Part shown: positions 12,479 through 55,198 of the stretch, in pieces | How the letters are laid out: the number at the start of each line of letters is the position of its first letter | Position numbering within the stretch: position 1 is the stretch's first letter | Virus record (IMG/VR): IMGVR_UViG_3300012953_000012 | Span: 32,001 to 96,000 of that record | From: a virus | Lineage: Duplodnaviria; Caudoviricetes | Reading direction: 5' to 3' (one strand) | DNA: 64,000 nucleotides | The notes under the pieces: generated by a model | The model's input: the letters and a program-made list of their open reading frames with translations, nothing else | Database searches by the model: none | What the model was told of the DNA's origin: nothing | Position numbers and translations under genes: made by a program

Positions 12479-12481
12479 ACC

Positions 12482-18397: not shown

Positions 18398-18405
18398 GAG
18401 GACCC

Positions 18406-19371: not shown

Positions 19372-19380
19372 GACACCAAC

Positions 19381-20556: not shown

Positions 20557-20558
20557 CC

Positions 20559-20723
20559 ATGCACCACATCTCCATCCACGACCTGAAAGGCGATGAGCGC
20601 CGCCGCTGGGCAGAGGCCCGCAAGGCCGCCTATCGCAAGGTATTGCGGGATCGGGGGGCGTCTGACCAGCAGCGCAGGGAAGCCCGAGCCAAGTTGAACG
20701 CCATCGACCGCCCTTCCCGGTAG
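20559..20723 (+). CDS. Small basic helical protein, 54 aa (MHHISIHDLKGDERRRW...)
   Basis: Fills the gap between structural genes; read manually. Confidence 0.55.
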   Translation: MHHISIHDLKGDERRRWAEARKAAYRKVLRDRGASDQQRREARAKLNAIDRPSR

Positions 20724-20733
20724 TCCGGCTATC
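20719..20733 (+). promoter_or_regulatory. Class III motif (GGTAG-TCCGG-CTATC)
   Basis: Exact spacing match; 58 nt upstream of the 1785-aa structural gene. Confidence 0.7.
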
Positions 20734-20790
20734 AGGTCCACCGGGGTAAGGGTGAGGCTTGCCTGATCCATCGCTTACGGAGACATAGAC

Positions 20791-23700: not shown

Positions 23701-26148
23701 TTCCAACAGTTGGACATGTCCTGGGCGTTGAAGGTCACGGGGACCGATCAGTTGCCTTCCAACTACGACGCTTCCGGCGGCAGCGGCCCTGTGATGGGTG
23801 GCGCTGGTCTGTTCCAGTGGGGGTCCATTATCGGACTGCCTCCTGAGTACATGCCTCGCTTTGGCCGCCAGGACATCCCTGTGCGGGCCACGGCGGGAAC
23901 GAGCGGCCCTTACATCGGCATCAACCACCTGTTTGGAGACTCCGAGACCGCCACCGACGTGGTCCGGGATGTCATCGGTGGAGCCAACACCACGGCCCCT
24001 GCGGTGACCAACTCGATCCTGCGGATCAGCACTGCCCTGGGCATCGACTACGGCGGTTGGAGCGTGGCCGACTCATCCTTCCAAGGACGGCTCTACGAGG
24101 ACGTGAACGCACGGTCTTCGGACATCAACAAACCTCTCCGTGGCATCCAGTTGCCTCCTTACGTCGGCATCGCTCGGGTCTACGGCGTCTACGAGGCTGC
24201 GGACTACGCAGCCAACGGTGGCGCGTGGGAGGACGAAGGCTTCACCTTGAAGACCTCGGGATCCATCGGGACCAACCTGCTCCGCACGGATGCGGACAAG
24301 CAGACGATGTACATCATCAAGGACGGTGCAGCCGATGTCCTCGCAGGACACGACGCGCATACCTACCTGGTCCCTGAGGAAGCCATCGACATCCAGAAGA
24401 TCGCCGGATGGACCTCGGCCTCCACCTTCGCGACCTACGACTACGTCGTCGAGGTCGCCGTCTTCGCGTTCGCAGAAGGCTTCATCAACAAGAACAACTA
24501 CGTCCTGCTCCGCTCGGACGCTGCTGCTGGCCTGGCAGCCAACCTGCTTTCAGGCGGGCGCATGATCATCCCAGCAGCGATGCAGTCCTCTGTGTCGAGC
24601 GGAACAGACGGCTACTCGGCCTTCACCCGGACGGTGTACCAGGGTGACCCCTACATGACCCGCAACGGCCCGACCTTGCAGACGGCGGACTACCAGAACC
24701 GCTATGGCAAGGTCCCCGTGACGGATGCCAACGCGGTCAACGCACCGCTCCAGCAGTACGACACGGACAATGGCCAGATCCCTGAGATCCCCAACGCCCG
24801 CGCTCTGGAAGTGCTGGCCACGGTGGATTTCTGGACCACGCTGGGCACCGGCAAGATGGGCGGTCCTGTCTACACGAGCACCCCCACTGATCCCGGCTAC
24901 CTGACCGCTTCCGGGACTCGCCTCCCGGAGTCTGCGACCCAGAACCCGTGGCAGCCCCACGCCCGAGCATTCTCGACCCCCCAGCCCGCCAGTGCAGGCT
25001 ACGCCTCGATGGGTGTGGTCATGGACAACCGCGCGGTGATGGTTGACCAGGCTGTCGTGATCCGGCGCGGCGACAGTGTGGCTACCTTCGCCTACGCCTC
25101 GTTTACGGGAGCAACCGTCCAGGAAGACATGTCTCTTCTGGCGGCCCTCATCAACTCGTCCGACATCGCGTGGGCGGAAATCGGGGTCTGGGCAGCCGCC
25201 GCAGGACCGACCTGCCGCATCTACGCTCGGATGCCCGGCAAGGAGGGAAGCGAGACCGTCGTGTCGCTGACTCCCGCGACGGGCACCCCGACTGTCATGA
25301 CCGGGCTCCGGTTGACCGTCAACACCACCTACGGTGCGTTGCCAGTCACAGGGTCGGTCCAGACTGTTGCAGCCCTTACCGGCTACACAGAGGTCCCTGC
25401 CAACGCCAAGCAGACGCACAGTGCCCCGACCCCAATGCGCCTCACCGGCATGACTGACCGACTCCCGCTCGGCATCCTGGTGAACGATTCTGACTTCATT
25501 GGCGAAGACCCGCTCCGCAAGGGAATGGCCTACGAGGTCCGCAGCGGTGGTGGTGACCAGTCCACGCAGGCTGTGACCACCTTCTCGGCAGAAGGCCAGG
25601 AGAACACCCGCCTCAGTGGTCCGGGTGGGATCATGGGCATGGCTGATGGGGCAATCCTTCAATACACCGCCTACAACGCTGCCTCAGCCCCCGATGGGGT
25701 CAAGCAGTTCCGCCTCTACCGTGGTGGTGGCTCGGCCTACGTCGTGTCGCCCCAAGCCGCTGGCGGCCCTGTGGACATCATCTCGGGCGGTTTCAGTGAG
25801 GGTGATGATCCTGTGCTGAAAGGTGCTGCTCTGGTCGGTCGGGCCTACCTGGTCCGCAACGGCTACGAGGAAGCGTTCACCGGCAACGTCACTCGGTCCT
25901 ACGGGGACGAGGTACAGATGGTCATTGTGACCAACGCGGTGTACGGCGAGGGTCTCGACTGCGACAGCGGCTACACCCTCGATGGGATCATCAGCCCCAC
26001 CGACTACGGCAAGGGCTACGCGGCATCTGACCGATACCGTCTGGAAGGCAAGCCCCTGGTCAAGAGCCGGGCTGCTCTCCCTGACCCCAACATCCCGCTG
26101 GCTCCGTACCCGCCGGAAGACCCCGCAGACGACGATCCGTGCCCGTGA
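20791..26148 (+). CDS. Large baseplate/tail structural protein (paralog of 8888..12478)
   Basis: KPPLDSELNLMSQ, RVDFVFLEVW, TERVQIQYRIR, DLGTVDGYVYAIPICAVFRRN, DILDLRR blocks. Confidence 0.75.
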   Translation: MAQDFGNGVSRTLSAIQRQFQTVVWQASKPPLDSELNLMSQMEMNRLAEVVRSQMHSGFLLDPMNADADFVTGKDWSNWFKLGRPSTNEVAPMMWANVNGWLVPVTGTGVSDGDPSNRVNLFQPPATEARVDFVFLEVWQAQIAPNPSTAGKPSASTIYKYGNTQFGGTNFPDEMKDPTMGFETTERVQIQYRIRTYGSGTGLGDAVDLAQYPDGLDDPNVLAQGAMASPVVGYVWSNMGDELGDRGLWRSGTGDSNSRTDLGTVDGYVYAIPICAVFRRNSSAFVARTASGNANQNGGLDRNPVSGTITDPLQATRTFTPVTLTNALAADTTGVISVTGLPNSGLDNVNINWSSMALEIGGEIMVIQAVNAATGQIQIASTTDTTNPWTGALLTPTPGRGRFGTQAAPHVAGSQIHFFNFRPDARFSDEIAASDILDLRRGVTGGEWSYEDLLKHNLGRVLDGSLKSSYKQGSGTNTQGTEIIEVDSYIGKYASPIPNQTEHLDGFDSIREVFSDSAVVQNDVSILLNVVGNTPTLSTNSWGAGAPFTVSGSVPAGTGSSWENGSIIEIDMGRARETSDTEAPFMRFVAPQEYWLSRDEMIVLGGALHGSQSPFLMRFVGEDAATGATEPYAWALPSPAYGSAAVNHPGPMFPMVDGGFEYPYIVLGGLANGTTLPADSAAVVTSALPAAVVALGIPALDFDSSAPGSNWYNTSVDDLSTEGITNLLLHGTRNLYDLLTNGGRDPSGASSELYITMADSTNPGNNGCFRVIGAGTAGYTWHNAPDGQSIVVERVGVLPDAMVPTAQVTVKFRTQYTNTADTGMAIVLTDLAGTLGGAANPWGAAPSISDSYNGDMVLDTSLLYGPSRGAMARVATRLDRFAAVAPASTVLREAPENIDPDSVEFRTRTGVPQDEYYYPAQPVPTWNRLPSLGAHAPNAPAYGEGRYNFESRREAELFADEGSKSVIFRPFQQLDMSWALKVTGTDQLPSNYDASGGSGPVMGGAGLFQWGSIIGLPPEYMPRFGRQDIPVRATAGTSGPYIGINHLFGDSETATDVVRDVIGGANTTAPAVTNSILRISTALGIDYGGWSVADSSFQGRLYEDVNARSSDINKPLRGIQLPPYVGIARVYGVYEAADYAANGGAWEDEGFTLKTSGSIGTNLLRTDADKQTMYIIKDGAADVLAGHDAHTYLVPEEAIDIQKIAGWTSASTFATYDYVVEVAVFAFAEGFINKNNYVLLRSDAAAGLAANLLSGGRMIIPAAMQSSVSSGTDGYSAFTRTVYQGDPYMTRNGPTLQTADYQNRYGKVPVTDANAVNAPLQQYDTDNGQIPEIPNARALEVLATVDFWTTLGTGKMGGPVYTSTPTDPGYLTASGTRLPESATQNPWQPHARAFSTPQPASAGYASMGVVMDNRAVMVDQAVVIRRGDSVATFAYASFTGATVQEDMSLLAALINSSDIAWAEIGVWAAAAGPTCRIYARMPGKEGSETVVSLTPATGTPTVMTGLRLTVNTTYGALPVTGSVQTVAALTGYTEVPANAKQTHSAPTPMRLTGMTDRLPLGILVNDSDFIGEDPLRKGMAYEVRSGGGDQSTQAVTTFSAEGQENTRLSGPGGIMGMADGAILQYTAYNAASAPDGVKQFRLYRGGGSAYVVSPQAAGGPVDIISGGFSEGDDPVLKGAALVGRAYLVRNGYEEAFTGNVTRSYGDEVQMVIVTNAVYGEGLDCDSGYTLDGIISPTDYGKGYAASDRYRLEGKPLVKSRAALPDPNIPLAPYPPEDPADDDPCP

Positions 26149-26162: not shown

Positions 26163-26696
26163 TTGACCCCACTACAATCACTTGAGCATCTGACAGACAA
26201 GGTTTGGGACTCCTGGTCCGGCGAACGCCTCTCTGGCGGCGTGGGGGAGTTCGACTCCTTCCACGCTCTCGCGTATGACCTCGGGATGGCGATGAACCTC
26301 TCCGACGACATCCCCCTGAGCAACGCTGGCGCGAAGATCTCGCGTTCCGTCCAGTCGTTGGAGAAGCAGACCCGCTCGTGGCGCATGGCTGTGAACCTCT
26401 CTCAAGAGGGGCACGAGATGGACATCGGCAGGTGGGTTGGCGATCTGGAGAAGACGAAGGGCAAGATCATCGCCATCCAGACCGCTCTGGAGAGAGCGGA
26501 GCGGAAGATGCCTTCTGCTCGGGCATCCGGCGAGTACATGAGTTCCGGCCTGGATGCCGACGACTTCAAGAAGGCGTATCTGGCAGGAGAGCACACCAAG
26601 AAGTTGATCGACGAGGCCGTCAAGGCGGCCAGGAAGGTGCCGCGCACCGCCTCGGTGAGCCGCGTTGCCTTTCGCTACGCCTCCAAGAGCATGTGA
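26163..26696 (+). CDS. Helical hypothetical protein with C-terminal RTASVSRVAFRY motif (candidate internal virion protein)
   Basis: Coiled-coil-like; follows the structural gene in the same unit. Confidence 0.6.
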   Translation: MTPLQSLEHLTDKVWDSWSGERLSGGVGEFDSFHALAYDLGMAMNLSDDIPLSNAGAKISRSVQSLEKQTRSWRMAVNLSQEGHEMDIGRWVGDLEKTKGKIIAIQTALERAERKMPSARASGEYMSSGLDADDFKKAYLAGEHTKKLIDEAVKAARKVPRTASVSRVAFRYASKSM

Positions 26697-28208: not shown

Positions 28209-29801
28209 GTGATCCCGATGCCTACCGTCCATGAACGACTGAAGGAAGTCCGCGAGCGACAAGACCTCGCCCTTCCCTGCCCGCCAAACTTCCGAGAGAC
28301 CTTCCTCAAACGCGATGGGAGCGAAGCACCGCTGGTGTTGCGTCCCTACCAGCAGCAGATGGTCGTCCACCTCATGGCGATGAAGCGGTTCGTGGTCGGT
28401 GACGACTGCGGACTGGGGAAGACCATCGAGAGCATCGCTGCGTTGTGCCAGTTGTGGAAGCGTGATCCCGACATGAAGGTGATCGTCCTCACGAAGAAAT
28501 CCAGCGTGCCTCAGTGGGAGTCCGAGTTTGAGCGGTTCACGACTGGGGTCAATGTGTTCATGGCGGTGGGGACTCCGAAGAAGCGGGCGAAGGCACACGA
28601 CGCCTGGGAGCAATCCACAGGCCCGACTGTGCTGATCCAGGGCTACTCGTCCGCGTGCAACGACTTCGGCACCCTCCAGCACTGGGAGGGCTACACCTTG
28701 ATCATGGACGAGGTGACGGTGGTGAAGACCCCAACCACCCGCGTCCACAAGATCTGTCGCCACTATGGTGGTCAGGCAGACCGGGTGTGGGGGCTCACGG
28801 CGACGTTGATCAAGAACAACCTCATGGAGGGCTACGGCATCTACAAGGTCGTGGTCCCGACGCTGTTCCCCATGTCGAAGAACGGCTTCATGAACAACTA
28901 CTGCATCACCCGGATGCAGCGGGTCGCGAACGGACGCCAGGTGCCGATGATCGTCGGCTACAACGCACGAGACATCGAACGGTTCCGGGATGAGATCGAC
29001 CACTACTACCTGGGCCGCCCGAAGCACCTGGTCGCCAAGGACCTTCCGGTGCTGACCACGAAGACCGTGCGTGTCGGCCTCACGAAGTTTCAACACGAGA
29101 AGTACCAGGAAGCCCTGTCCGGGCTGCTGGAGTTGGGCGACGGGGACGAGCGGGAGACGACCCAGTTGACCGCGTTGATCTACTGCCAGGAGATCGTGAA
29201 CCACCCCGCGCTGATCGAGTACCCCGACTACACCTCCGAGAAACTGGACGCCCTGCTGGACATGGTGACCGAGGGTGGCGACCTGCATGATCAGAAGGTC
29301 ATCGTGTTCACCCGGTTCAAGGAGATGGTCAACACGGCGATGCCCGTGCTGGAGAGGGCCAAGATCAAGTGCGTCCGGGTCACGGGTGACGAGAACGAAG
29401 CCCAGCGCAAGGCGGCCATGAACGCCTTCCAGGACCCCAACGACGACACGCGAGTGATCTTCATCACCATGGCTGGCGGCGATGCCATCAACCTCCAGGC
29501 TGCGAAGGCGATGGTCTTCTACGACAGCCCCTGGTCGGCTGGCGACTACCTCCAGATCGTGGGGCGCATGATCCGCATCGGGTCGGATCACGACGCCTGC
29601 TACGCCATCCACCTGGTGTGCAGGGACACCATCGACGAGCGGGTGCAACAGGTCGTCCGCAAGAAGATGGGCCTGATTGAACAGGTGCTCGGTGAACGGG
29701 TCAAGGGAAACAAGGGCGAGGACGTGGTATTCAAGGCCGGGTCCGAGGTCCGGGACATCTTTGACGCCATGGTGCAGGACGCTCGACCGGGAGGGGGGTG
29801 A
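28209..29801 (+). CDS. SNF2-family (SF2) helicase/ATPase
   Basis: LRPYQ, GDDCGLGKT (Walker A), IMDE (Walker B), GLTAT, GGDAINLQAA, QIVGRMIRIG. Confidence 0.92.
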   Translation: MIPMPTVHERLKEVRERQDLALPCPPNFRETFLKRDGSEAPLVLRPYQQQMVVHLMAMKRFVVGDDCGLGKTIESIAALCQLWKRDPDMKVIVLTKKSSVPQWESEFERFTTGVNVFMAVGTPKKRAKAHDAWEQSTGPTVLIQGYSSACNDFGTLQHWEGYTLIMDEVTVVKTPTTRVHKICRHYGGQADRVWGLTATLIKNNLMEGYGIYKVVVPTLFPMSKNGFMNNYCITRMQRVANGRQVPMIVGYNARDIERFRDEIDHYYLGRPKHLVAKDLPVLTTKTVRVGLTKFQHEKYQEALSGLLELGDGDERETTQLTALIYCQEIVNHPALIEYPDYTSEKLDALLDMVTEGGDLHDQKVIVFTRFKEMVNTAMPVLERAKIKCVRVTGDENEAQRKAAMNAFQDPNDDTRVIFITMAGGDAINLQAAKAMVFYDSPWSAGDYLQIVGRMIRIGSDHDACYAIHLVCRDTIDERVQQVVRKKMGLIEQVLGERVKGNKGEDVVFKAGSEVRDIFDAMVQDARPGGG

Positions 29802-29805
29802 TGGA

Positions 29806-29833
29806 GGGGGTAGGGAGGCCCCTCAGTCCGGTA
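29806..29833 (+). promoter_or_regulatory. Class II promoter-like motif GGGGG-N18-CGGTA
   Basis: 21 nt spacing to TA; heads the loader/DnaB/primase-ZBD operon. Confidence 0.65.
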
Positions 29834-29856
29834 AGACAATGAAACAGGAGAGCCCT

Positions 29857-30195
29857 ATGGATGACCCCAACACAACCCTCGATGCCCTTAGGCGAAGCGC
29901 CGATAAAGCCGCTGTTCAGCGTGTGGTCGTCGTGATCCGCGCCGAGACTGACGGTACGACTGAACTCCTCAACTCCTACGATGGGGTGCGCGTCTATGAC
30001 AACGGCGCAGTGGACCCCCGTGTCACGATGGGTGGCCCACTGCCCGTGTTCGCCCGATGGTCGGACTGCGAGTCCTATCTGTTGGAGGACCCCGGCAAGC
30101 GGAGACCGTGCCTCCTTTCCTATGACGAGGCCCAGAGGGTCTTCAAGACCTCCTTCGCGGACTACACCGACTACATCACGGAGCACACCGAATGA
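29857..30195 (+). CDS. Hypothetical protein
   Basis: GGAG SD before ATG 29857; coupled to next gene. Confidence 0.65.
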   Translation: MDDPNTTLDALRRSADKAAVQRVVVVIRAETDGTTELLNSYDGVRVYDNGAVDPRVTMGGPLPVFARWSDCESYLLEDPGKRRPCLLSYDEAQRVFKTSFADYTDYITEHTE

Positions 30196-30917
30196 GTGCC
30201 CCCAGCCCAGAGTGCAGGATCTGTGGGGGGAGTGGGATGGTCGAAGCACCGCCTGACCCACCCCACCCCCCATCGTTCGACAGGTGTGAGTGTACGCTCC
30301 GTAAGGACATCCTCACCAACGTCGAGCGCGGATACCCCGGCCTCTCGGTGGCACCTGTCATTGAGAAGACCCCGCTTCTCGGCCACCACGCCGAGAACGT
30401 CTGGGTCACGACCGGGCAGACCTTCTTCTCCCACCTTCGGCATGTGGCGGTGCGTCAACCGGCAACGTGGTCATTCAAAGTGATCTCGGACGCGGAGTTG
30501 GTCACCGCATGGCTCGCCACGGCGGGTCTGGGGAGCGGTGAGATCATCGACCCGGATGCCTACAAGGTGAGCACAAAGTACATGACCATCCCAGACCTGG
30601 TGTCACCGCCGGACCTGGTGGTGATCCGCATGGGGATCAAGGTGGCCCGCAACGTCGCTGCCCCAGAAGTATTGGCCGAGGCTCTCAACACCCGGCTCCA
30701 CGCCCGTAAGCCCACCTGGGTGTGGGACACCAAGGCTTCCCCTTTGGATGCCGGGAGCCTGTTTTGGTCTACTGAGGTTGCTTCGACCCTGTCCTCATTC
30801 AAGCGCCTCGGGGGCAACGGTGGCGGCGGGATGCCCCCCGGCGGCCCGAAACCCGCTACGAAGAAGCCAAAGCGAGGGGGTATGTCCCGCAAGAAGACTC
30901 TGCGAGGTGGGGGATGA
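30192..30917 (+). CDS. DnaC/IstB-like helicase-loader homolog with N-terminal Cys cluster and no intact P-loop
   Basis: CRICGGSG...CEC; PDLVVIRMG at the Walker B position; EALNTRLHARKPTWV as in DnaC; immediately upstream of DnaB. Confidence 0.6.
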   Translation: MSAPSPECRICGGSGMVEAPPDPPHPPSFDRCECTLRKDILTNVERGYPGLSVAPVIEKTPLLGHHAENVWVTTGQTFFSHLRHVAVRQPATWSFKVISDAELVTAWLATAGLGSGEIIDPDAYKVSTKYMTIPDLVSPPDLVVIRMGIKVARNVAAPEVLAEALNTRLHARKPTWVWDTKASPLDAGSLFWSTEVASTLSSFKRLGGNGGGGMPPGGPKPATKKPKRGGMSRKKTLRGGG

Positions 30918-32395
30918 AGGTACTCCTGCGATCCTCGTTCCGTGATGGGACGAAGGACAACCCGACGCTGTTCCTGCGGAACGCACAGTCACTCCGGGAC
31001 TCCGGGCTCGGGTTCGACCTCCCCGAAGACGGGGCCATCTGGGCCTACGTCACAGACTTCATCGACCAGCATCATCACGTCCCGGACGCTTCGACGATCC
31101 GAGGGCACTTTGACCGGGTCAACCAGGTCCCTGTGGTGGACCGGCTGGACATGCTCTGCGTCGAGAAACCGCGCACTCAGGGCGACTTCCTGCAACTGCT
31201 GGAGTCCCGCGTCCAGGACCGTCGCATCCGTGTGGTCACGGAGGTACTGCGGGAAGCCGCACGCATCGTAGACACTGGGGTCACCATCAAGGAAGGCTAC
31301 GAGGAGCGCATCCTCCGTGGTCCGGCCCACGCTGTCCGCTACGTCCTCGACAACAGCCACCGGGTCATCACCCCGGTCAACGGTGTCCGGCTCACCGGTG
31401 ACGTGACCTCGGACGGCGATGCCTTCCTCAAGGAGTACGAGCGGGTGGAGAACGACCCGCTCGCAGGCATCGGTCAGTTTAGCGGCCTGCGCCAGATGGA
31501 CGTGGCCTTGAAGGGCGCGAAGCGCGGCGAGTTGTGGACCCATGCGGCGTTCACGGGCGGGCTCAAGTCCACGCTGTCGATGAACTGGCACTACAACCAG
31601 GCGGTCTACTACCAGCACAGCAGCGTCCTATTCTCGCTGGAGATGCCCTACCAACAGGTGCGGCGCATCATCTACGCCATCCACTCCAGCCACGAGAAGT
31701 TTGCCCAGGCCCGCAAGGATCTGGGCATCAGCAAGAGCCTCGACTACAGCAAGATCAGGGACGGAGAACTCAGCGCCAACGAGAAGAAGTTCATGGCCGA
31801 GCACGTCGTCCCAGACTTCAATGACCCCACGAACAACTACGGCCACATCCACATCGAGGTCGCTGACCCGGACAAGAGCGACTTCAACGTGAATGACCTC
31901 CGCTCGCGGTGCGAACTGCTGTACTCCAAGGACCCTGCGATCCGCATGGTCACGGTGGACCACGCCGGGCTGATGCAGAGCCGTGGAAAGTACCGGAGCA
32001 CCACCGAGAAACTGAACGAGGTCCTTCGTGATCTCAAGCGTCTCGCTATGTCGTTCAACCGAGGGGCGGGCATCGCGGTCATCGCTCTGTTCCAGATCAG
32101 CCGAGAAGGCTACAAGGCCGCCGAGAAGAACGGCGGTCGGTACAACCTGACTCACCTGTCCTATGCAAACGAGGCCGAGCGTTCGTCTGACATCGTGACG
32201 GCAGGGTGGGTGGACACCGAGTTGCGGGAGTCGAACCTGGTCAAGATCCAGTGCCTCAAGTCCCGTGACAACGCACCGTTCCAGGACTTCTACGCCGGGG
32301 TGTTGTGGCCCTGCCGCCGGTTGATCACCACCAACGATGTCACGCCGCAGACCGCACAGCGTGTAGGACAGGACATCGACCTGGGAGACCTGTAA
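30914..32395 (+). CDS. dnaB: Replicative DNA helicase, DnaB family
   Basis: AFTGGLKST (Walker A variant), LFSLEM, MVTVDHAGL, IALFQISR, NEAERSSDIV, IQCLKSRD. Confidence 0.88.
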   Translation: MKVLLRSSFRDGTKDNPTLFLRNAQSLRDSGLGFDLPEDGAIWAYVTDFIDQHHHVPDASTIRGHFDRVNQVPVVDRLDMLCVEKPRTQGDFLQLLESRVQDRRIRVVTEVLREAARIVDTGVTIKEGYEERILRGPAHAVRYVLDNSHRVITPVNGVRLTGDVTSDGDAFLKEYERVENDPLAGIGQFSGLRQMDVALKGAKRGELWTHAAFTGGLKSTLSMNWHYNQAVYYQHSSVLFSLEMPYQQVRRIIYAIHSSHEKFAQARKDLGISKSLDYSKIRDGELSANEKKFMAEHVVPDFNDPTNNYGHIHIEVADPDKSDFNVNDLRSRCELLYSKDPAIRMVTVDHAGLMQSRGKYRSTTEKLNEVLRDLKRLAMSFNRGAGIAVIALFQISREGYKAAEKNGGRYNLTHLSYANEAERSSDIVTAGWVDTELRESNLVKIQCLKSRDNAPFQDFYAGVLWPCRRLITTNDVTPQTAQRVGQDIDLGDL

Positions 32396-33036
32396 TGCGT
32401 ATGGTCCACGTCCTGCGGAAGCCCTTGTCCGAAGGGACAGTCGCCTCCAACGTCCTCAAGCACGGTTGTGGTGGTTTGAACATCGACGCTTCCCGTATCT
32501 CCAGCACCGGAGATCACATGCGTCCCTTCCAGCCCACGAACAACGACCGTGAGGTCTACGGGGTTCAGGCTGGGTTTCAGCCTACCAACCACAAGGGAGG
32601 CCGTTGGCCTGCCAATGTGATCCTCCAGCACCTCGACGGTTGTCGGTGCGATGGGGTCAAGAGGGTGAAGGCGTGTGGCGGGACGAGGACGTTCACGCGG
32701 TCCACAGCAAAGGATAGAAACGGGCAGACTGGGGCTGCTTACGGTGCGGAGTCGCGCCCCGAAGGAACCGAGCACGTCAACTACGCCGACGCAGAAGGCA
32801 AGGAAACCATCGCCAACTGGATCTGTGAACCCGGCTGTCCCGTTGCTCGGCTGGATGAACAGACAAAACTCTCGCAAAGCAGCAGACCCAACCGGGTCTC
32901 TGGGCAGTTCACTCAGCCCGGTCAGAAGGGTCTTATCTACGGCAACGGCTTCGGCGGTGTGTTGTCTCCCACTTACAACGACAAGGGGGGAGCCAGTCGC
33001 TTCTACAAGCAGGTAGGCGGCAAGGCCGATGGGTAG
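32395..33036 (+). CDS. Stand-alone internal (variable) region of a phage N6/N4 DNA methyltransferase, no catalytic motifs
   Basis: RKPLSEGTVASNVLKHGCGGLNIDASRI, GRWPANVIL, GGASRFY; no DPPY and no FxGxG. Confidence 0.65.
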   Translation: MRMVHVLRKPLSEGTVASNVLKHGCGGLNIDASRISSTGDHMRPFQPTNNDREVYGVQAGFQPTNHKGGRWPANVILQHLDGCRCDGVKRVKACGGTRTFTRSTAKDRNGQTGAAYGAESRPEGTEHVNYADAEGKETIANWICEPGCPVARLDEQTKLSQSSRPNRVSGQFTQPGQKGLIYGNGFGGVLSPTYNDKGGASRFYKQVGGKADG

Positions 33037-33661
33037 GGCAAAGGCGGCAGCAGACCGCATCCGAGCCGAAGTACCCATCGTGGACGTGCTCTATGAGTAC
33101 GGCTACCACGTCCACCCAGACGGAGACGACCGGGAGCAGCAGTTTTCGTGTGATCTCCACGGCGACGGGGCTGACACGAAGCCCTCGGCCCGCGTGTACC
33201 CGGAGTCGGCCTCGTTCCACTGCTTCGCTTGCGGTAGATCACGGGACGCCATCACCCTCGTCCGAGAAAAGGAAGGCATCGACTTCTGGCCTGCCGTGAA
33301 GGCGCTGGAGGGCCGCTACGGTCTTGACCCCCTGCCATGGGAAGGACCCGAAGAGCCCCGCAAGGACAAGGCCGTCCACAAGATCAATGAGGCTCTGGAA
33401 CACACCGCCGAGACCCCGGAACAGTTGCTCAACAGGATCTCCCGGATCATCGACTCGTGTTGCCGAGAGCGCAGCATTCCGGCTGAGAGGTGCGCGGCCT
33501 TCTGGGAGGCACACGACAAGGTAGACACGGCCTGGCGTGAAAACGCGGCCCCCGAAGCCACTGTGAAGGCGGCTGCGAGCAAGGTCCTTCGCACCGTTCG
33601 TGAATACCTGGGGGTAGCCTCCGCTCAGACATCGGTACATCCCTCTGAGGAGAGCACATGA
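33029..33661 (+). CDS. Primase-type CHC2 zinc-finger domain protein without TOPRIM
   Basis: FSCDLHGD...KPSARVY...FHCFACGRSRDAITLV...DFWPAVKAL. Confidence 0.8.
   Translation: MGRAKAAADRIRAEVPIVDVLYEYGYHVHPDGDDREQQFSCDLHGDGADTKPSARVYPESASFHCFACGRSRDAITLVREKEGIDFWPAVKALEGRYGLDPLPWEGPEEPRKDKAVHKINEALEHTAETPEQLLNRISRIIDSCCRERSIPAERCAAFWEAHDKVDTAWRENAAPEATVKAAASKVLRTVREYLGVASAQTSVHPSEEST
33610..33637 (+). promoter_or_regulatory. Class II promoter-like motif GGGGG-N18-CGGTA
   Basis: 21 nt spacing to TA; inside the 3' end of the ZBD gene, upstream of polA. Confidence 0.65.
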
Positions 33662-36417
33662 ACATTCTGGAAAGCCTCAAAGAGATCAGCCGCCCAAAGG
33701 TCGCCAAAAAGCCGTGGATGGAGGCCGTAGATCTACGGCTCGCCACTGTGGATGACCTGGACACCATCGCACAGGAGTGCATCGACGCAGGCATCTACGC
33801 CCTGGACCTGGAAACGACGGGTCTGGACCAGCGAGCCTTTGCGGGCGGGTCTGGACGCAAAGAGACGGTGGACAAGATCGTCGGCTACTGCATCGCCCCC
33901 AGCCCGGAGAAGGGTTGGTACATCCCCGTCCGGCACAGGGCTGAAGGGGCAGCAGCAAACGTCCCGCCACGCCTTGCGGTGGACCTGGTCAACCGCATCC
34001 AGGAGACCGGGGCGCAGGTCGTCTTCCACAACGCCAAGTTCGACCAGAAGTTCCTCGACTACGAGCCCTCAGGCCGGGCCGGGGATTGGGATGACAACAC
34101 AACGTGGCACGACACCATGATTCTGGCCTACCTGCGGAACACCCGCACACGGGCGAAGGGTCTCAAGCCCCTGTCGAAGAATGAACTCGACCGGGAGATG
34201 ATCGAGATCAAGGAGTTGTTCCCACCCGAGGCCGTCAAGGCGAAGAAACTCGACTTCTCGACCCTGGACCCCACCTGGGAGCCTGTCGTCTGGTACGCAG
34301 CGGCAGACGCCGTGAACACCCTGGCGCTGTTCCACATCCTCCACCCCTCGGTCGTGGAGAAAGACAATCAGGGCCGCCACCAGAAGGGCATCTACAAGTT
34401 GGAGAAGGCGTGCCTGCGAGCAACCATGTGGATGGAACAGAACCGCATCAACATCGACCGTGACCGTCTGGAAGGGTTGATGCGCCTGGGCCAAGATGAG
34501 TGGTGGGGGTGCATCAACGAGGTCTACGACGAAGCCTCCACCATGCTGGAGCGCGACGTCCGCCCCTCGTGGGTCAAGGAGATGCAGACCGGCTACGACC
34601 CCAACACTCTGGACCCCAACTACATGGAGGTCCGAGAGCGGGCGATGGTGGGGTCACAGGACAAGGCGTTGGAGCCTATCGAGAGGTCTGTGCCTCGGCT
34701 CGATGACCCCCGCAGGCAGGAGAGCGTCGAGTTCCCAGCGGTCTACGACGTGACCATCCCCGCCAACCTCGGGATCATGCTGCGGGAGATGGGGGTTAAG
34801 GGCCTGGCGGTGACCGAAAAATCCGGCCAGGTCAAGACGAGCAAGGACGAGTTGGACCGCGTGATCTCGGAGGCTGGTGACCAGTTCCCGTTCATGGCGA
34901 AGGTCAAGCGGTTCCGTGAGGTCAGCAAAGGGTTGGGCACGTTCCTGTTCCCGATCTGGTGGGACACGACGCCCGAGCGCAGTCCGGGGGGCTGTGTGTG
35001 GGCCAACTTCAACGGGCAGAAGGTAGACACGGGCCGTTTCAGCACCCCGACCCCACGAGACAAGCACAAGGATCGCTTCATGGGTCAGGTTCGGTGGGGC
35101 GTCCACATGACCCCAGCGACCTACGACAAGTCCAAGCCCGAGTGCGTCCGGCGCATCCGGGAGGTCGTCACAGCGCGTCCTGGGCACGTCCTGTTCGCCA
35201 TCGACTACAGCGGCGTCGAGTTGCGGATCGTCACCAACCTGAGCGGCGAGCCGAAGTGGATCAACGAGTTTTTCCGGTGCTCCAGTTGCGAGCACACCTT
35301 CCCACGGGACGCCCGCCCGCCTCCCTTCTGCCCCGAGTGTGGGTCCGACAAGATCGGTGATCTCCACAGCCTCACGGCCATCGGTGTCTTCGGGGACGAG
35401 ATCAAGGGCACGGGTGAGTTCAAGCAGCGCCGCCAGGAGGCAAAGGCCCTCAACTTCGCCATGGCCTACGGTGGGGGTGGTTCCGCTGCCCAGCGTGCTG
35501 TCGGTGTGGACCGGGAGGAAGGCTGGCGCATCAAGAACCAGTACGACAAGACCTACAAGGTGCTGCGGAAGTGGTGGAAGAAGCAGCACCTGACTGCCCG
35601 CAAGCAGAAGTACGTCACGACCGCCTACGGTCGGAAGTACCCCCTTCCCGACATCGACCACGAGATGGGTGGCTTCCGGTCGAAGGCCGAGCGCAACAGC
35701 GTCAACGGACCTGTCCAGGGCACTTCTGCCGACATCATGAAGTTGGCGATGGCGAAGTTGTACCGGGCCTTCAAGAACCGAGACTGGCTCGACCTGGTGC
35801 TCATGACCATCACCATCCACGATGAGTTGGTCTTTGAGATTGACGAGCGGATCGCTGGTGAGGCCGTTGAGGTCATCGAGAAGATCATGGTGGACGATGC
35901 CGCGAAGGGTCTCCAGTGGCTCGTACCGCTCAAGGTGGATGTGGAGTTTGGCGACAACTGGACCGTGCCCTTCAACCTGACCGAGATGACCTGGAACCAG
36001 GGCGGCGGGAAGTGGACGGAGCACTGGGCCAAGGTGTTCCCGAAGCACTACCAGCACTACCTCTCGTGTGGTGGGGATCCCGTCAGCGGGGTGGAGGCCC
36101 CCACGGATGATCTCGCGACAACCACAGAGAAGGGTGTCCCTCTCCGAGATGTCAGCGAGGCCGAGATTGGAATCCGGTCACCTGACCGAACCAGCCCAGC
36201 CCGGAAGCCTGAAAAGGAAGGCACGTCCTACGTCTACCGTTTGCGGTCCTTGGACGCCCGGAATGCTGAGTGCCTGGCCCGCGTGATCCTGCGTTGTGAG
36301 GGTCGAGGCACCGATACCTTGTTTGTACGAGACAACAGAGGGAACGACCTCCTGGAGCGGCCCGTGCGGGTCGCTTACGAGGAGTTTCGTGTGATCGCCG
36401 ACTACGAGGGCCTGTGA
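33658..36417 (+). CDS. polA: DNA polymerase family A with 3'-5' exonuclease
   Basis: ALDLETTGL, FHNAKFD, YAAADA; motif A AIDYSGVELR, motif B RQEAKALNFAMAYG, motif C TIHDELVFE. Confidence 0.95.
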   Translation: MNILESLKEISRPKVAKKPWMEAVDLRLATVDDLDTIAQECIDAGIYALDLETTGLDQRAFAGGSGRKETVDKIVGYCIAPSPEKGWYIPVRHRAEGAAANVPPRLAVDLVNRIQETGAQVVFHNAKFDQKFLDYEPSGRAGDWDDNTTWHDTMILAYLRNTRTRAKGLKPLSKNELDREMIEIKELFPPEAVKAKKLDFSTLDPTWEPVVWYAAADAVNTLALFHILHPSVVEKDNQGRHQKGIYKLEKACLRATMWMEQNRINIDRDRLEGLMRLGQDEWWGCINEVYDEASTMLERDVRPSWVKEMQTGYDPNTLDPNYMEVRERAMVGSQDKALEPIERSVPRLDDPRRQESVEFPAVYDVTIPANLGIMLREMGVKGLAVTEKSGQVKTSKDELDRVISEAGDQFPFMAKVKRFREVSKGLGTFLFPIWWDTTPERSPGGCVWANFNGQKVDTGRFSTPTPRDKHKDRFMGQVRWGVHMTPATYDKSKPECVRRIREVVTARPGHVLFAIDYSGVELRIVTNLSGEPKWINEFFRCSSCEHTFPRDARPPPFCPECGSDKIGDLHSLTAIGVFGDEIKGTGEFKQRRQEAKALNFAMAYGGGGSAAQRAVGVDREEGWRIKNQYDKTYKVLRKWWKKQHLTARKQKYVTTAYGRKYPLPDIDHEMGGFRSKAERNSVNGPVQGTSADIMKLAMAKLYRAFKNRDWLDLVLMTITIHDELVFEIDERIAGEAVEVIEKIMVDDAAKGLQWLVPLKVDVEFGDNWTVPFNLTEMTWNQGGGKWTEHWAKVFPKHYQHYLSCGGDPVSGVEAPTDDLATTTEKGVPLRDVSEAEIGIRSPDRTSPARKPEKEGTSYVYRLRSLDARNAECLARVILRCEGRGTDTLFVRDNRGNDLLERPVRVAYEEFRVIADYEGL

Positions 36418-48624: not shown

Positions 48625-48839
48625 CCCGCTGTGACCGCTGCCCGAAGCCCCTCGGCGTCCATCGGGTGTCGTGGTTCAACCTCGACACCATCTGCACTCG
48701 CTGTCAGGCCCAGGAAGAAGCCCACCCCGACTACGCCTATGCCCGCGATGTAGAACGCAAGCGGGTACAGGTTGGTGACTACAACTTCGTTGGAGTCGGC
48801 TGGCCTGGAGTCAACGGCAGGGTGCTCCGCACCCGGTAG
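48621..48839 (+). CDS. Conserved small phage zinc-binding protein (CDRC...FNLDTICTRC...GDYNF.G.G)
   Basis: Recognisable phage family pattern. Confidence 0.65.
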   Translation: MTRCDRCPKPLGVHRVSWFNLDTICTRCQAQEEAHPDYAYARDVERKRVQVGDYNFVGVGWPGVNGRVLRTR

Positions 48840-48872
48840 ACGGGCTATCGCCTCCGACTGTTCGGAGGCGAT
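48835..48872 (+). promoter_or_regulatory. Class III motif (GGTAG-ACGGG-CTATC) plus 11-bp hairpin covering the SD
   Basis: ATCGCCTCCGA-CTGT-TCGGAGGCGAT (48847-48872); GGAGG 48864-48868. Confidence 0.8.
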
Positions 48873-48876
48873 GCTC

Positions 48877-50046
48877 GTGAGCCGTGAGATCCAGATAGGA
48901 CACCCGTGCCCGCACCTCATCATTGAGGAGGTGGTCGCGTTAGGGGCGGATAAGAAATCACTGTCCACCCGTGCGCCTGTGTCATCAGCCAACAGCGTCA
49001 GGATCCTGGTCAACAATCAGGTCTATGTGCCGCCTGGGGGCCTCTACTCCAAAGCCATTCTTTCGGGAAGCGTGGGTCCTTACCGCATTGAGAAATGCGT
49101 GGGGTTCGCAGGACCGGAAGGCAACACTCTCACCGTGACGGCCTCGCAAGGGACTGTGACCGTTGACCTCCCCCTGTCGCAACGCCTCAGCGTGGATCGG
49201 CTGGTCCGCGCCTTGAAGTTGACGCCTCTGGATGGTCTGGTTGGGATCACCAGCGTCAACGGCTCGGTGACGTTCACGGACAACCACGCCACAGGCTCGG
49301 AGTCCGTGGTCAAGGTCAGCGGCGACGGTGCCGATTCTTTGGGTTTCGTTCAACGGGGGGCTCGCGGGCGAGAAATCTATCCGGGGTGGACCCTGGTTTC
49401 GCGACCGGACGTGCTTCCGAGTGCTGATCTGCGCGGGCTGTTCCCTGTTCCTGCCCGGTATCCTCGCTTCAAGAAGCCGGTTCCCAACGGGTCGGACTTC
49501 AAGGTCACCTACACCGCGATGCCCGAGAGGTGTCCCCGGTGCCAGGCCACCTACATCGAGAACGACTACCGCTTCAACCAGATGGGCGAGGTACGGACCA
49601 TCATCAACGAAGACCTCCTCTATCAGGCGTGCTTGAAAGCGATCCTGACGAGGAAGGGGTCGAACCCGTACCACACAGGCTATGGATCCTCCATCATGAC
49701 CCGTGTCGGGCGCAAGCGGATGGCAGCAGCCGCTGGAGCCATCCGGCAGGACATTATCCAGGCACTCCGAGGGGTCCAGGGCATTCAAGGAGGTCAGCGG
49801 AAGTTCCAGCAGGTGACTGACCGAGAGAGGCTGTACCGCGTCGAGGATGTGTCCGTGACCCCCACGGATGATCCCACGGTCGTGCGTGTCGGTGTGGTCG
49901 TCGTCAACGGCAGCAACCAACCTGTATCGCTGAACATCGTCTACTCGGCTCCGGGGGCGATAGCCCTCGCTGGGTCCAACGGTCAGTCCCTCGGGGTCTC
50001 GGGTCTGTCGCAATCCCAAACACGACGCTTCCTGATGGACGGGTAG
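48877..50046 (+). CDS. Baseplate wedge protein with C-terminal gp25/W-like domain
   Basis: LYQACLKAILTRKGSNPYHTGYGSSI...IIQAL...RVEDVSV...VVRVGVVV is gp25-like; precedes baseplate J. Confidence 0.75.
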   Translation: MSREIQIGHPCPHLIIEEVVALGADKKSLSTRAPVSSANSVRILVNNQVYVPPGGLYSKAILSGSVGPYRIEKCVGFAGPEGNTLTVTASQGTVTVDLPLSQRLSVDRLVRALKLTPLDGLVGITSVNGSVTFTDNHATGSESVVKVSGDGADSLGFVQRGARGREIYPGWTLVSRPDVLPSADLRGLFPVPARYPRFKKPVPNGSDFKVTYTAMPERCPRCQATYIENDYRFNQMGEVRTIINEDLLYQACLKAILTRKGSNPYHTGYGSSIMTRVGRKRMAAAAGAIRQDIIQALRGVQGIQGGQRKFQQVTDRERLYRVEDVSVTPTDDPTVVRVGVVVVNGSNQPVSLNIVYSAPGAIALAGSNGQSLGVSGLSQSQTRRFLMDG

Positions 50047-53000: not shown

Positions 53001-53517
53001 CACAGTCGTTCGGGAAGACATTTCCACGGACACCGTGTCGGAGAGCGTCCTGCTGACGTCCCTCTCGTCCAACCAAAGCATCGTCTACATCCTCACTGAG
53101 AACCTCTCAGCGGCTACCGTCAACGGTGGTGGGGGAGCCGGTGAGTTCCGGGCCGTCTTCCAGGACGAGGTCGAGATGAACCTGCTTCCGGCAGCCGCCA
53201 CACTGGTGACACTGGGCACGGAACCCGGCTCATCCTACATCGTCGGAAGTGATGGTGTGGTGATCGAAGGGTACTCGGATGACGAGACCTTGAAGACGCA
53301 AGGCTACGTTACGGACAAGGCCATCACCCAGCAGCGCAGGGCACTGACCGCGAACCGGGTGTTGGTATCTGTCACCCCTGGTGATGCTCCCACAGAGCAC
53401 CAGTACGCTACCACCTATGTGGTGGGGGAGGGCGCTGGAGCCAGGAACGTCGAGCCTGGTGGTGCGGAGTACTGCACCGAAGGCTTCCTCACATTCACCT
53501 ACGACGAGGATCGGTGA
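50056..53517 (+). CDS. Baseplate J-like (gp6/gp47-type) protein with N-terminal Ig/Fn-like extension
   Basis: GSVLRDTVIDP, ARGEVLFF, VIPLGTIV, VPVQATTTGSNTNVGTGQI, GGRDGESNLSLTARV...SGTERGY. Confidence 0.88.
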   Translation: MSDTLIYSPDGKLTQTVNFSTTRQTRFFEGVLPQDAAEVLVSINGSGFSSDESLVQWGDGVWTIPSPLYEPDGLVLLEGVNTVEIKAILGNGSATPTASATVRLTTDQDVLLTVGSPTNISMTQENDTVTVRAEAPETADGFQGMNYYASANAGGGVSGYTRINVSLVADGLARQEVQQFAAQAVDLPVQVDADGNPTADPMYYRLTGRQEDEDEGVLVTDYNERYEVPETARTIRLNMTLDQVRDVVSYDFTHNRSGSPQSTPATVRVSEFVNLSPSSPLYYVVTAVFYDRVTDTEYESAYSAEVVGQPMQVTTAIGSIPTVSRQNIVTQFVRAIFRSNPQIKVEAGSVLRDTVIDPYSSESERLRFLLDFYQRARTPTLLLQIDDPTASGTSIPVAQSSYKQALQSALYLDNALATQGLIDSAFESYASNFGLQRKSGIGARGEVLFFTRTKPQSSLVIPLGTIVSGGGSNFATSRAASISSAQIASYYNPVNGYYQISVPVQATTTGSNTNVGTGQITSVISTLGVSLSVTNLAAMIGGRDGESNLSLTARVQNRLASVDSGTERGYLQTAADVPGVVKANVVAAGNPLMQRDLNADGQHMGGKVDIWVQGTNLASLTDNFAFTFEIAQDIQFQILSVPDLTFRALDPDLSSADPIVEMLDDPDIGYEMRNASTGEVFDLAGVKVLSYDTIQLDTSVSQPAVDLTDVVLASYRRRTGSKFVLLRQPAEEIVSVVGSVSGTLPTDSYLLNHPDAPLAYGRSTLAEDSLQIDGYRDANGNTIPSGDSITVTDEPHVMVGQYAEFLDSLGANYLTIVVKSADGLITYNGPNDPSGAPDYQVTLGTQTVAVSITRTDASTIPNGASVLVSYEHDENFTVTYTTNLIVSTTQNAVDLQKHATADVVVKDAIPAPLDIEATVVVRQGRETSKVDADLRTNMATFFTNLRLGDPVRQSDIIDVIEQTSGVSYVVVPLNLLARSTGSTVVREDISTDTVSESVLLTSLSSNQSIVYILTENLSAATVNGGGGAGEFRAVFQDEVEMNLLPAAATLVTLGTEPGSSYIVGSDGVVIEGYSDDETLKTQGYVTDKAITQQRRALTANRVLVSVTPGDAPTEHQYATTYVVGEGAGARNVEPGGAEYCTEGFLTFTYDEDR

Positions 53518-54482
53518 TGGGCGACGAACTTCATGTCTACGACTTCGACGGGACTCTGTTCCGCAGTCCCCACGCCCCAGCGGTGTGGGACGGCGATTGG
53601 TGGAGTGATCCCGCGAGCCTGCTGCCTCCGTGCGTACCTGAGAAGCCTGGCCCAGCCTGGTGGATTTCTCCGACCGTGGGATCAGCCAAACAGTCGATCT
53701 CCAACTCGGATGTCTTCGCCATTATGATGACCGGACGCCGGGACGCATCTGCCTTCCGCTACCGGGTGCCGGAACTGCTGAAGCAAAAGGGACTCAACTT
53801 CGACGCGGTGCATCTGGCGCAAGGGTCAGGCGACTCGCTGATGGGCAAGATCAAGACCATCAGCAAGTACCTCGCCCGTTACCCGAACATCGACACGGTG
53901 CGGATCTGGGACGACCGGGGGAGCCACCTCCGCAAGTTCAAGAGCCTCCTGGAGCGTGAGGGCTACACTGTCCACATCGACCATGTCCGGGCGAAGTCAG
54001 CCGATCCGCTGTGCAGCGAGATGGACTTCGCTCAGAAGGACACTCCGAAGCAGAAGCCTTCCTACATCGGGGTCTTCCTGGACGCCCGAAGCAAGGCTGC
54101 TCTCGTGAATGAATACAACCTGGCCCACGACAAGGTGAAGACCGACCATGTGACCCTGGGGTTCAAGTTGACCCCAGACCTGGAAGCCATGATCGGGCAG
54201 CCCGTCAAGATGCAGGTGGTCGGCTACGCTGACGATGATCTCGGACAGGCGGTCGCCGTGGACCTTCCGGGCGATGTCCCCTTCGCGAAGAAGGGCATCC
54301 CGCATGTGACCCTGACGCACGACAGGTCAGTGGGGCCGAAGTACAGCAACCAACTACTGGCGGGTGGTCACGACGGAAAGCGCGGACCTGCCTTGACTGG
54401 GATCATCGACACGTTCCCACGGAGGCTCACTCGCAGAACGGCATCGGCGGCTCGGGTGGCTGCACTGCATAAGCGTCGTTGA
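53517..54482 (+). CDS. HAD phosphatase (Swiss-army-knife RNA-repair type) fused to 2H phosphoesterase
   Basis: VYDFDGTLFRSP, MTGR, IWDDR; two HxT motifs DHVTLGF and PHVTLTH. Confidence 0.8.
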   Translation: MGDELHVYDFDGTLFRSPHAPAVWDGDWWSDPASLLPPCVPEKPGPAWWISPTVGSAKQSISNSDVFAIMMTGRRDASAFRYRVPELLKQKGLNFDAVHLAQGSGDSLMGKIKTISKYLARYPNIDTVRIWDDRGSHLRKFKSLLEREGYTVHIDHVRAKSADPLCSEMDFAQKDTPKQKPSYIGVFLDARSKAALVNEYNLAHDKVKTDHVTLGFKLTPDLEAMIGQPVKMQVVGYADDDLGQAVAVDLPGDVPFAKKGIPHVTLTHDRSVGPKYSNQLLAGGHDGKRGPALTGIIDTFPRRLTRRTASAARVAALHKRR

Positions 54483-54843: not shown

Positions 54844-55198
54844 CGTCCTTCCCTGTTGCTGGTCGAGGCACCGCGCTCTCTACGTCCACGACAGCACGAG
54901 CAGTCTTCGCTGCACGGCCTCGCCTGACAGACGCAGCACGAATCTGAGACCCCACAGGGCCAGCGTCGATCTCACAAGCCACGGAGCAGAAGTGCTGTGG
55001 CTTGACATCGTAGTGGGCGTAAGGCCGACCACAGACGAGACAGTCAGAGGTCGCCATAGCCATCAGTAGACGCAACGCACGACAGCAAGCGTCACAAGGC
55101 CACCCACCACCATCGGAAACACCGTACCGAGACGGGTGAGGAAACCGGGGGTGAACAGGTCTGGGGGGAGGTGGGGGGACATCAGAGGCAGGCTCCAT
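54836..55198 (-). CDS. Cys-rich hypothetical protein
   Basis: CDACC, CLVCG, FCSVAC; start uncertain. Confidence 0.45.
   Translation of the reverse strand: MEPASDVPPPPPRPVHPRFPHPSRYGVSDGGGWPCDACCRALRLLMAMATSDCLVCGRPYAHYDVKPQHFCSVACEIDAGPVGSQIRAASVRRGRAAKTARAVVDVESAVPRPATGKDDG

Follow-up and report, generated by a model that had tools for sequence, protein, structure and literature searches.

What would a phage gain from an enzyme that joins a HAD phosphatase to a 2H phosphoesterase, and what is the gene for such an enzyme doing behind two baseplate genes? Both questions are raised by a 64,000-nucleotide stretch of DNA (the window), positions 32,001 to 96,000 of the IMG/VR virus record IMGVR_UViG_3300012953_000012 (Duplodnaviria; Caudoviricetes), which comprises 205,564 bp with 62% G+C and a CheckV completeness of 46%. 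The gene concerned, from an uncultured giant ocean phage, is called HAD-2H below (P0001; Table 1). A preliminary description, made from the letters of the window, took its product for an injected anti-defence enzyme that would heal broken RNA ends or, like the phage protein Acb1, destroy the signal nucleotides of the cyclic-oligonucleotide-based antiphage signalling system (CBASS). The open reading frame (ORF) is a real, conserved gene: 125 homologs, all metagenomic, were found among 5.8 billion proteins searched, about 90 of them with the same architecture of about 320 residues, and some lie on contigs of 286–399 kb. Residue conservation and tag counts given below come from 74 aligned orthologs. 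The enzyme adds a member to an RNA-end-healing family that is known by prediction, and its type is one expected for jumbo phages according to Iyer et al. 2021 (PMC7824862).

The N-terminal domain matches Pfam HAD_SAK_1 (PF10307), which Pfam describes as 'HAD domain family 1 in Swiss Army Knife RNA repair proteins', over residues 24–147 with 73.4 bits (gathering cut-off 25.6; E 2.7e-20), and HAD-2H is the only gene of this family found in the 205-kb record. Motif I is D9xD11xT13 (D9-F-D11-G-T13, 53541–53555), motif II T72, motif III K111 and motif IV D133-D134, and a Trp/Pro-rich cap insert occupies residues 20–50. T72, G73, R74 and K111 are invariant, while D9, D11, T13 and D133 are at least 90% conserved. 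In an exhaustive structural comparison, the best structure for the HAD fold (residues 1–160) was the 3'-phosphatase of T4 Pnkp (5uj0; Z 15.4, root-mean-square deviation (rmsd) 2.6, 134 aligned residues), followed by Pnkp1 of the Pnkp1/Rnl/Hen1 repair complex (4xrp; Z 15.1); the remaining HADs score at most 12.3, many of them at Z 9–12, within the Rossmann-like HAD fold. To judge from the profile and the modelled fold, this domain is most likely a phosphomonoesterase, predicted to act on RNA 2'/3'-phosphate ends. Two cysteines are at least 90% conserved, one at residue 39 in the cap insert (PPCVP) and the other at residue 166 in the interdomain linker (PLC/PEC); a disulfide or a metal site is conceivable.

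The C-terminal domain is a compact 2H phosphoesterase with two HxT motifs, H211-V-T213 (54147–54155) and H263-V-T265 (54303–54311), in which H211, T213 and H263 are invariant and T265 is at least 90% conserved. The DxDGT and HxT motifs noticed in the preliminary description are thus present and, since they are invariant or at least 90% conserved, far more than by chance, the HAD motifs and both HxT motifs are under selection. Modelled alone, the domain reaches a predicted local distance difference test score (pLDDT) of 95.2. The closest structure is the catalytic domain of CNPase (2xmi; Z 13.4, rmsd 2.5, 127 of 131 residues aligned), and every other 2H family scores Z 7.0 or less: Acb1 7.0 (rmsd 4.1), a Burkholderia phage phosphodiesterase 6.7, LigT 6.4 and the Appr>p cyclic phosphodiesterase (CPD) 6.3. 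The Pfam model tRNA_lig_CPD (PF08302) gives the protein of the window 13.7–15.4 bits, under its cut-off of 23; when the C-domains of the orthologs are scanned singly, it matches 63 of 74 (E up to 1, best E 5e-10), against 19 for LigT_PEase and a single one for Acb1 (PF23474; E 0.017). In BFVD, the top fold matches of the domain come from giant eukaryotic viruses, whose Trl1-like multidomain proteins lead a list that holds Acb1 entries too. A profile of this mini-2H domain retrieves 4709 cluster representatives, mainly stand-alone proteins of 125–160 residues. By its modelled fold, the domain belongs with the clade of CNPase and the Trl1 CPD, with Acb1 far behind, and the Acb1 analogy drawn in the preliminary description is not borne out.

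The whole protein, modelled by AlphaFold2 with the ortholog alignment as input, has a pLDDT of 93.5. Among Swiss-Prot models, it is matched over its whole length (residues 3–305) by Schizosaccharomyces pombe C4.02c and yeast YMR265C (E 4e-13 and 6e-13), then by Trl1 tRNA ligases. No functional study of YMR265C or PF10307 was found in the literature. In jumbo-phage RNA repair as outlined by Iyer et al. 2021 (PMC7824862), 2H enzymes open cyclic ends and SAK-type HADs remove the linear phosphate; the SAK-type HAD is mostly a stand-alone domain in these phages, and 2H enzymes are also among their counter-nucleotide candidates. Among 80 related IMG/VR loci listed, 75 match the HAD half alone and 5 the full length. 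A nucleotide search of cultured-phage records with window positions 50000–56000 gave no match, a protein search found the HAD half only, in four uncultured huge-phage records, and the family profile has no relative among PDB sequences. The family looks phage-restricted in sequence searches, because a scan of GTDB species genomes gave two matches only, both on contigs of metagenome-assembled genomes and both to the HAD half only.

From the identities of the two domains, we infer a two-step chemistry. The C-terminal mini-2H domain would open a 2',3'-cyclic phosphate, presumably to a 2'-phosphate by analogy with CNPase and the Trl1 CPD, and the N-terminal HAD_SAK_1 phosphatase would then take off the monoester to leave a 2',3'-diol. 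The gene would accordingly encode a two-step healing enzyme for 2',3'-cyclic-phosphate ends, with RNA 3' ends, those of tRNA above all, as the most likely substrate, a reading to which a probability of about one half is given. Such ends would arise when host defence or toxin systems cleave RNA or tRNA with metal-independent ribonucleases. Once healed, the end could be handed to a CCA-adding enzyme, which would amount to a ligase-independent repair of the tRNA 3' end, or alternatively to a kinase and a ligase, possibly encoded in the unsequenced half of the genome. With respect to the type of enzyme, the preliminary description has held up: the RNA-end-healing fusion that it proposed is matched by HAD_SAK_1, by the T4 Pnkp phosphatase and CNPase as nearest structures and, under its cut-off for the protein itself, by the Pfam model of the tRNA-ligase CPD. 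Its analogy with Acb1 and its use of the operon position as a clue to function have not.

Fusion partners bear on the substrate. The mini-2H domain is joined to HAD_SAK_1 or to the PolyA_pol head domain of CCA-adding enzymes, and one copy is found in a eukaryote-type protein whose other domains are MJ1316, which recognises cyclic ends, a 2H domain of the AKAP7 type, an AAA_33 kinase and R3H. A relative of 288 kb and 79% completeness (G002, IMGVR_UViG_3300028177_000001) encodes a 919-residue protein in which a CCA-adding enzyme is followed by HAD_SAK_1 and a 2H domain of another type (Table 1), with RVA-type tags, a short motif described below, at the N-terminus, near residue 88 and at the C-terminus. 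In a search with this fusion protein, PF01743 and PF10307 occur together in 15 of 32 matches. By analogy, fusions of HAD_SAK_1 to CCA-adding enzymes suggest a ligase-independent tRNA 3'-end repair in giant phages. This route matters because neither RNA ligase nor polynucleotide kinase was found in the record, itself 46% complete, or in its two most complete relatives.

An identical copy of the 919-residue protein lies on a 350-kb contig, which equals in length the longest contig with the HAD-2H ortholog P0047. Among the fusion proteins P0263–P0293, HAD_SAK_1 is joined also to type IB topoisomerase (PF01028), acetyltransferases and PAP2 phosphatase, and the LigT-type 2H domain (PF13563) to NUDIX and RNA ligase; RVA tags in these proteins often stand about 12 residues before and about 175 residues after HAD motif I, that is, at domain borders. 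An 874-residue PolyA_pol protein of another relative (G001) has no detectable HAD or 2H part.

Several points weigh against a role of HAD-2H in RNA-end healing. The preliminary description saw no RNA ligase in the window and proposed a search of the genome; neither the RNA ligase families PF09414 and PF01139 nor polynucleotide kinase was found in the 205-kb record, which is 46% complete. A search with PF09511 also gave no match in the record, and the same search matched none of 14 control genomes, so that it does not establish a lack of this family. The HAD-2H protein itself has no P-loop or 5'-kinase domain in a Pfam scan, and no CCA-adding enzyme was found in the sequenced part of this genome. 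Candidates for the missing partners were rejected. A weak AAA_33 match in the record, taken as a polynucleotide kinase, is a deoxynucleoside kinase (dNK E 3e-47), the PF09414 match of G001 is an NAD-dependent DNA ligase, and an RtcB match in G002 covers profile positions 1–46 only, even at an E limit raised to 10. The last lies in a 198-residue ORF (L099:1474-2067, minus strand) whose C-terminal 45 residues match the first 46 RtcB positions, no further piece of RtcB being detected; a ligase gene that was split or interrupted is conceivable, as is a remnant. The fusion proteins are themselves ambiguous. The phage with the 919-residue fusion has a separate HAD-2H ortholog too (L021), and the 2H domain of the fusion does not belong to the same subfamily as that of HAD-2H (hhalign E 0.2; Pfam 2_5_RNA_ligase2). 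As this domain is LigT-type and not CNPase-type, HAD-2H and the fusion may do different jobs. Moreover, to judge from where they stand in the sequence, the RVA tags that flank HAD domains in many fusions may mark cleavable polyproteins of tagged cargo rather than functional fusions. Finally, CNPase also hydrolyses free 2',3'-cyclic nucleoside monophosphates (2',3'-cNMPs), so that the fold likeness leaves the choice between polynucleotide and mononucleotide undecided.

The likeliest of the alternatives concerns the location of the enzyme and can be combined with either chemistry: HAD-2H would be made late, its tag would direct it to particles under assembly, and it would leave them along with the DNA, to act as a counter-defence before phage gene expression. 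It starts from the locus. The gene is the last of a unit of three, behind a gp25-like and a baseplate J gene, which is headed by a promoter-like motif at 48837. The start codon (53517–53519) and the TGA of the upstream 1153-residue gene (53515–53517) have one base in common in a TGATG overlap, and GAGGA stands 6 nt 5' of the start codon, so the translational coupling to baseplate J noted in the preliminary description is confirmed. We place the start of the gp25-like gene at 48871, 22 nt past the motif, whereas the ORF as called mechanically begins at 48772. At the other end, the last 56 nt of a convergent GIY-YIG gene overlap the tag-coding end of HAD-2H, and the unit ends there; in a relative whose ortholog is 86% identical, a different gene lies downstream, without overlap. 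Exact copies of the motif's core, TAG-N5-CTAT, number 7 in the window, where 0.53 would be expected, and 33 in the whole genome, commonly after cGG and 25–35 nt before a ribosome-binding site and ATG; 19 of the 33 sites are GG-prefixed, against none in a reversed-sequence control. Several sites are palindromic pairs that can be read on both strands (for example at window 56211/56212). The motif is in use throughout the genomes of two relatives as well, with 29 sites in G001 and 18 in G002 against one control site each. Because it is placed before baseplate genes, GGTAG-N5-CTAT is taken as a putative late promoter, from which HAD-2H would be made along with the baseplate proteins.

The adjacency to baseplate J is in itself a poor guide. 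The gene was rightly described as appended to the baseplate operon, but among the ortholog loci examined it lies beside baseplate J only in this phage and in the 86%-identical relative, and the position is thereby weakened as a clue to function. A 73% identical ortholog is found among small opposite-strand genes, one of 72% after an unrelated gene, and one of 69% next to ribonucleotide reductase and Acb5; orthologs of 56–60% lie upstream of an iron superoxide dismutase gene, and of two with 52–54%, one follows UvrD and an ART-PolyVal protein and the other stands among unannotated genes. On the other hand, a one-mismatch copy of GGTAG-N5-CTAT is present 16–29 nt before the ortholog start in three of the four other contexts that have an upstream intergenic region, with a background of about 0.004 such copies per 60-nt window. 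The expression class thus seems, from motif placement, to be conserved although the neighbourhood is not.

The second element of delivery would be the tag. The protein ends in the tail RTASAARVAALHKRR, with the C-terminal residues ...RRTASAARVAALHKRR, and the putative tag claimed in the preliminary description is real as a portable motif: coding-like ORFs of the 205-kb genome contain 4 copies of its two-part form, [RK]xA[SGAM]-xx-R[VI]A-xx-[YFWH], where 300 residue shuffles would lead one to expect 0.017, and the non-coding-like ORFs contain none. One copy ends an unrelated protein of the window (Table 1), for which no Pfam or PHROG family was found, and another forms the N-terminus of a 152-residue protein elsewhere in the genome; on other proteins of the genome, too, the tag stands at ends or junctions. 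All six tag-bearing ORFs of this genome are in units headed by GGTAG-N5-CTAT. Apart from one SWIM finger, which scores at the curated cut-off (19.6 bits, E 6.5e-4), the tag-bearing proteins have no Pfam or PHROG family, so what the tag does cannot be read from them; a giant protein adjoining one of them has a marginal PHROG match only. Among the 74 orthologs, 29 have a C-terminal RVA tail that fits the strict pattern (about 37 if loose variants, judged by eye, are counted), four have the RVA motif in the HAD-2H linker, six a variant tail ending in VGSMFM, and nine an N-terminal extension of 27–47 residues instead of a tail, seven of these sharing one helix-like sequence; 26 show none of these patterns, or about 18 once loose variants are allowed. 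The helical N-terminal extension is absent from this genome. Since its position shifts among orthologs and it recurs on unrelated proteins, the tag is portable and can be exchanged, as would befit an address or docking peptide and not a part of the catalytic fold. The C-terminal RTAS-xx-RVAxLH of HAD-2H would be one such module.

Virion delivery is therefore possible, if on the unlikely side. It accords with the position, translationally coupled, behind two baseplate genes in one unit, with the near-consensus motif before orthologs in unrelated neighbourhoods, with a tag that is kept across the family though it moves, and with the motif-headed units of all six tagged ORFs. It is weakened by the restriction of the baseplate adjacency to two phages, by the absence of a tag from about a quarter of the orthologs and by the late-promoter status of the motif, which is itself a matter of inference; furthermore, with neither kinase nor ligase at hand, an injected healing enzyme would not mend an anticodon loop that has been cut. 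Should the tag and the putative late promoter indeed stand for virion delivery, the cell would receive an RNA-repair or counter-signal enzyme along with the DNA. A broader proposal, speculative and rather improbable as a whole, is that a clade of giant ocean phages loads late-made enzymes for RNA or nucleotide ends with RVAxRY-type tags (HAD-2H, CCA-adding and others) into the particle as a kit that, before any phage gene expression, heals 2',3'-cyclic-phosphate ends made by host ribonucleases or clears the 2',3'-cNMP products of Acb5.

A different chemistry has to be weighed against RNA-end healing, namely that HAD-2H turns free 2',3'-cNMPs or very short oligonucleotides into nucleosides and phosphate. 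The phage nuclease Acb5 is reported to cut the CBASS signal 3'3'-cyclic GMP–AMP (3'3'-cGAMP) into 2',3'-cAMP and 2',3'-cGMP (bioRxiv 10.1101/2025.07.12.664507). These are what a CNPase-like enzyme with a phosphatase would remove, and breakdown products of RNA made by ribonucleases could serve as well; the purpose would be removal of by-products that inhibit translation or act as signals, or the recycling of nucleotides and phosphate. The nearest structure of the 2H domain, CNPase, is indeed a 2',3'-cyclic nucleotide 3'-phosphodiesterase. An ortholog with 69% identity (P0008) is a divergent neighbour of Acb5 at a distance of 176 bp, another with 72% identity (P0007) lies 2 kb from Acb5, and the present genome encodes an Acb5 homolog as well (Table 1). 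Ribonucleotide reductase genes at the P0008 locus and the deoxynucleoside kinase of this genome would fit recycling. Nevertheless, Acb5 is 61 kb away from HAD-2H in this genome and was not found at the other loci searched, about 100 in all; the HAD domain is nearest to polynucleotide phosphatases and not to nucleotidases, and both domains are found fused to enzymes of RNA ends and to RNA-binding modules. Clearance or salvage of free nucleotides is therefore unlikely.

A direct attack on the signal, in which the 2H domain would cleave 3'-5' bonds of cGAMP or of the cyclic oligoadenylates cA3, cA4 or cA6 like Acb1 or a ring nuclease and the HAD domain would trim the products, is highly improbable: the shared 2H fold, the Acb1 entries in BFVD, the vicinity of Acb5 in two relatives and the place of 2H enzymes among counter-nucleotide candidates speak for it, but Acb1 is distant in fold (Z 7.0 against 13.4) and in profile matches (1 against 63 of 74 orthologs), and the substrates of CNPase/Trl1-clade enzymes are 2',3'-cyclic phosphates and not 3'-5' diesters.

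The positions of the features discussed are collected in Table 1. The second, stand-alone HAD noted in the preliminary description is supported by its motifs and a PHROG match, and motif I alone aligns it with the HAD-2H family; it adjoins a DUF3228 protein (6825..7394, minus strand; strong Pfam match, E 7e-49). A replication block occupies 28209..36417 on the plus strand, with a helicase (phrog_62, E 2e-89), a DnaB-like helicase and a DNA polymerase (phrog_17, E 6e-99), so that the baseplate unit is an island between non-structural modules. Proteins of 1196–1971 residues at 8888..26148 have no convincing family, the 1785-residue member having a marginal PHROG match only (E 0.0035), and no tRNA genes were found in the 64-kb window.

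Table 1. Features of the HAD-2H locus and of related loci. Positions refer to the window unless they carry a genome or locus handle.
Feature	Position	Strand	Basis and remarks
HAD-2H gene (P0001)	53517..54482	+	open ORF, 321 aa; ATG overlaps baseplate J stop (TGATG)
HAD phosphatase domain, residues 1-160	53517..53996	+	HAD_SAK_1 profile, motifs I-IV, structural matches
Mini 2H phosphoesterase domain, residues 176-302	54042..54422	+	two HxT motifs, CNPase-like fold, tRNA_lig_CPD
Portable tag RTAS-AA-RVAALH, residues 307-318	54435..54470	+	predicted helix 311-320
Promoter-like motif TAGACGGGCTAT	48837..48848	+	extended consensus cGG-TAG-N5-CTAT; heads three-gene unit
gp25-like baseplate/sheath-initiator gene	48871..50046	+	Pfam Sheath_initiator E 9e-4 (below curated cut-off); phrog_975 baseplate protein E 1e-6
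Baseplate J/gp6-like wedge protein, 1153 aa	50056..53517	+	Pfam Baseplate_J E 4e-22; phrog_6 baseplate wedge E 3e-33
GIY-YIG gene, 138 aa	54427..54843	-	Pfam GIY-YIG E 4e-11; convergent with HAD-2H gene
Unrelated 177-aa protein ending in RTASVSRVAFRYASKSM, same tag	26163..26696	+	second gene of unit headed by motif at 20721
Second, stand-alone minimal HAD phosphatase, 132 aa	7590..7988	+	DFDDT, IVTTR, a Lys, HHDDD; phrog_415 polynucleotide kinase E 1e-6
Acb5 (anti-CBASS 5) homolog, outside the window	G000:C1:24311-24661	-	67-75% identical to Acb5 next to HAD-2H orthologs (L010, L105)
919-aa fusion of relative G002	L104:733-3489	-	PolyA_pol head, PolyA_pol_RNAbd, HAD_SAK_1, LigT-type 2H (PF13563, 2_5_RNA_ligase2)

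There are several known systems with which HAD-2H can be compared. Acb1, the anti-CBASS nuclease of phage T4, likewise has a 2H fold with two catalytic histidines and is phage-encoded. It cuts 3'-5' bonds of cyclic oligonucleotides, has no phosphatase partner and is distant from the 2H domain described here. With regard to the tag, the capsid targeting sequence of T4, found on internal proteins and Alt, is likewise a short portable peptide on unrelated late phage proteins. That sequence stands at the N-terminus, where the prohead protease cuts it off, whereas the putative address tag described here is mostly C-terminal or at a domain junction; the neighbours of HAD-2H in this phage are baseplate genes and not head genes.

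For the pair of activities, the HD domain of the bacterial class II CCA-adding enzyme has 2',3'-cyclic phosphodiesterase, 2'-nucleotidase and phosphatase activities. A like pair of activities is thus attached to a tRNA nucleotidyltransferase there, and related phages fuse HAD_SAK_1, with or without 2H, to the PolyA_pol head. The folds are HAD and 2H instead of HD, and the healing module is a separate protein in this phage. The CPD of fungal and plant Trl1 and vertebrate CNPase have two HxT motifs and the closest 2H fold in common with HAD-2H, whose orthologs match tRNA_lig_CPD at E up to 1, although the phage 2H domain has about 130 residues against about 215. The Trl1 CPD is joined to a ligase and a kinase and the 2'-phosphate is kept for ligation, whereas the phage domain is joined to a phosphatase that would take it off. 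T4 Pnkp and bacterial Pnkp1, the nearest solved HAD structures, share the DxDxT chemistry and heal 3' ends made by anticodon nucleases. In contrast to them, the phage protein has no 5'-kinase domain, no partner ligase was found, and opening the cyclic phosphate would fall to a separate 2H domain. T4 pnk is expressed early, whereas the HAD-2H gene is apparently transcribed together with baseplate genes.

The fungal SAK proteins YMR265C of Saccharomyces cerevisiae (Q03508) and SPCC4.02c of S. pombe (Q9USS8) come closest in architecture, since they share the order of HAD_SAK_1 followed by a 2H-like domain. HAD_SAK_1 proteins, including YMR265C, are predicted RNA-repair phosphatases, for which the compact phage version of 321 residues with its high-confidence fold would be a convenient test enzyme. 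The fungal proteins have 437–461 residues and just 16–18% identity to the phage protein, and the portable C-terminal tag and the phage structural operon are features of the phage side.

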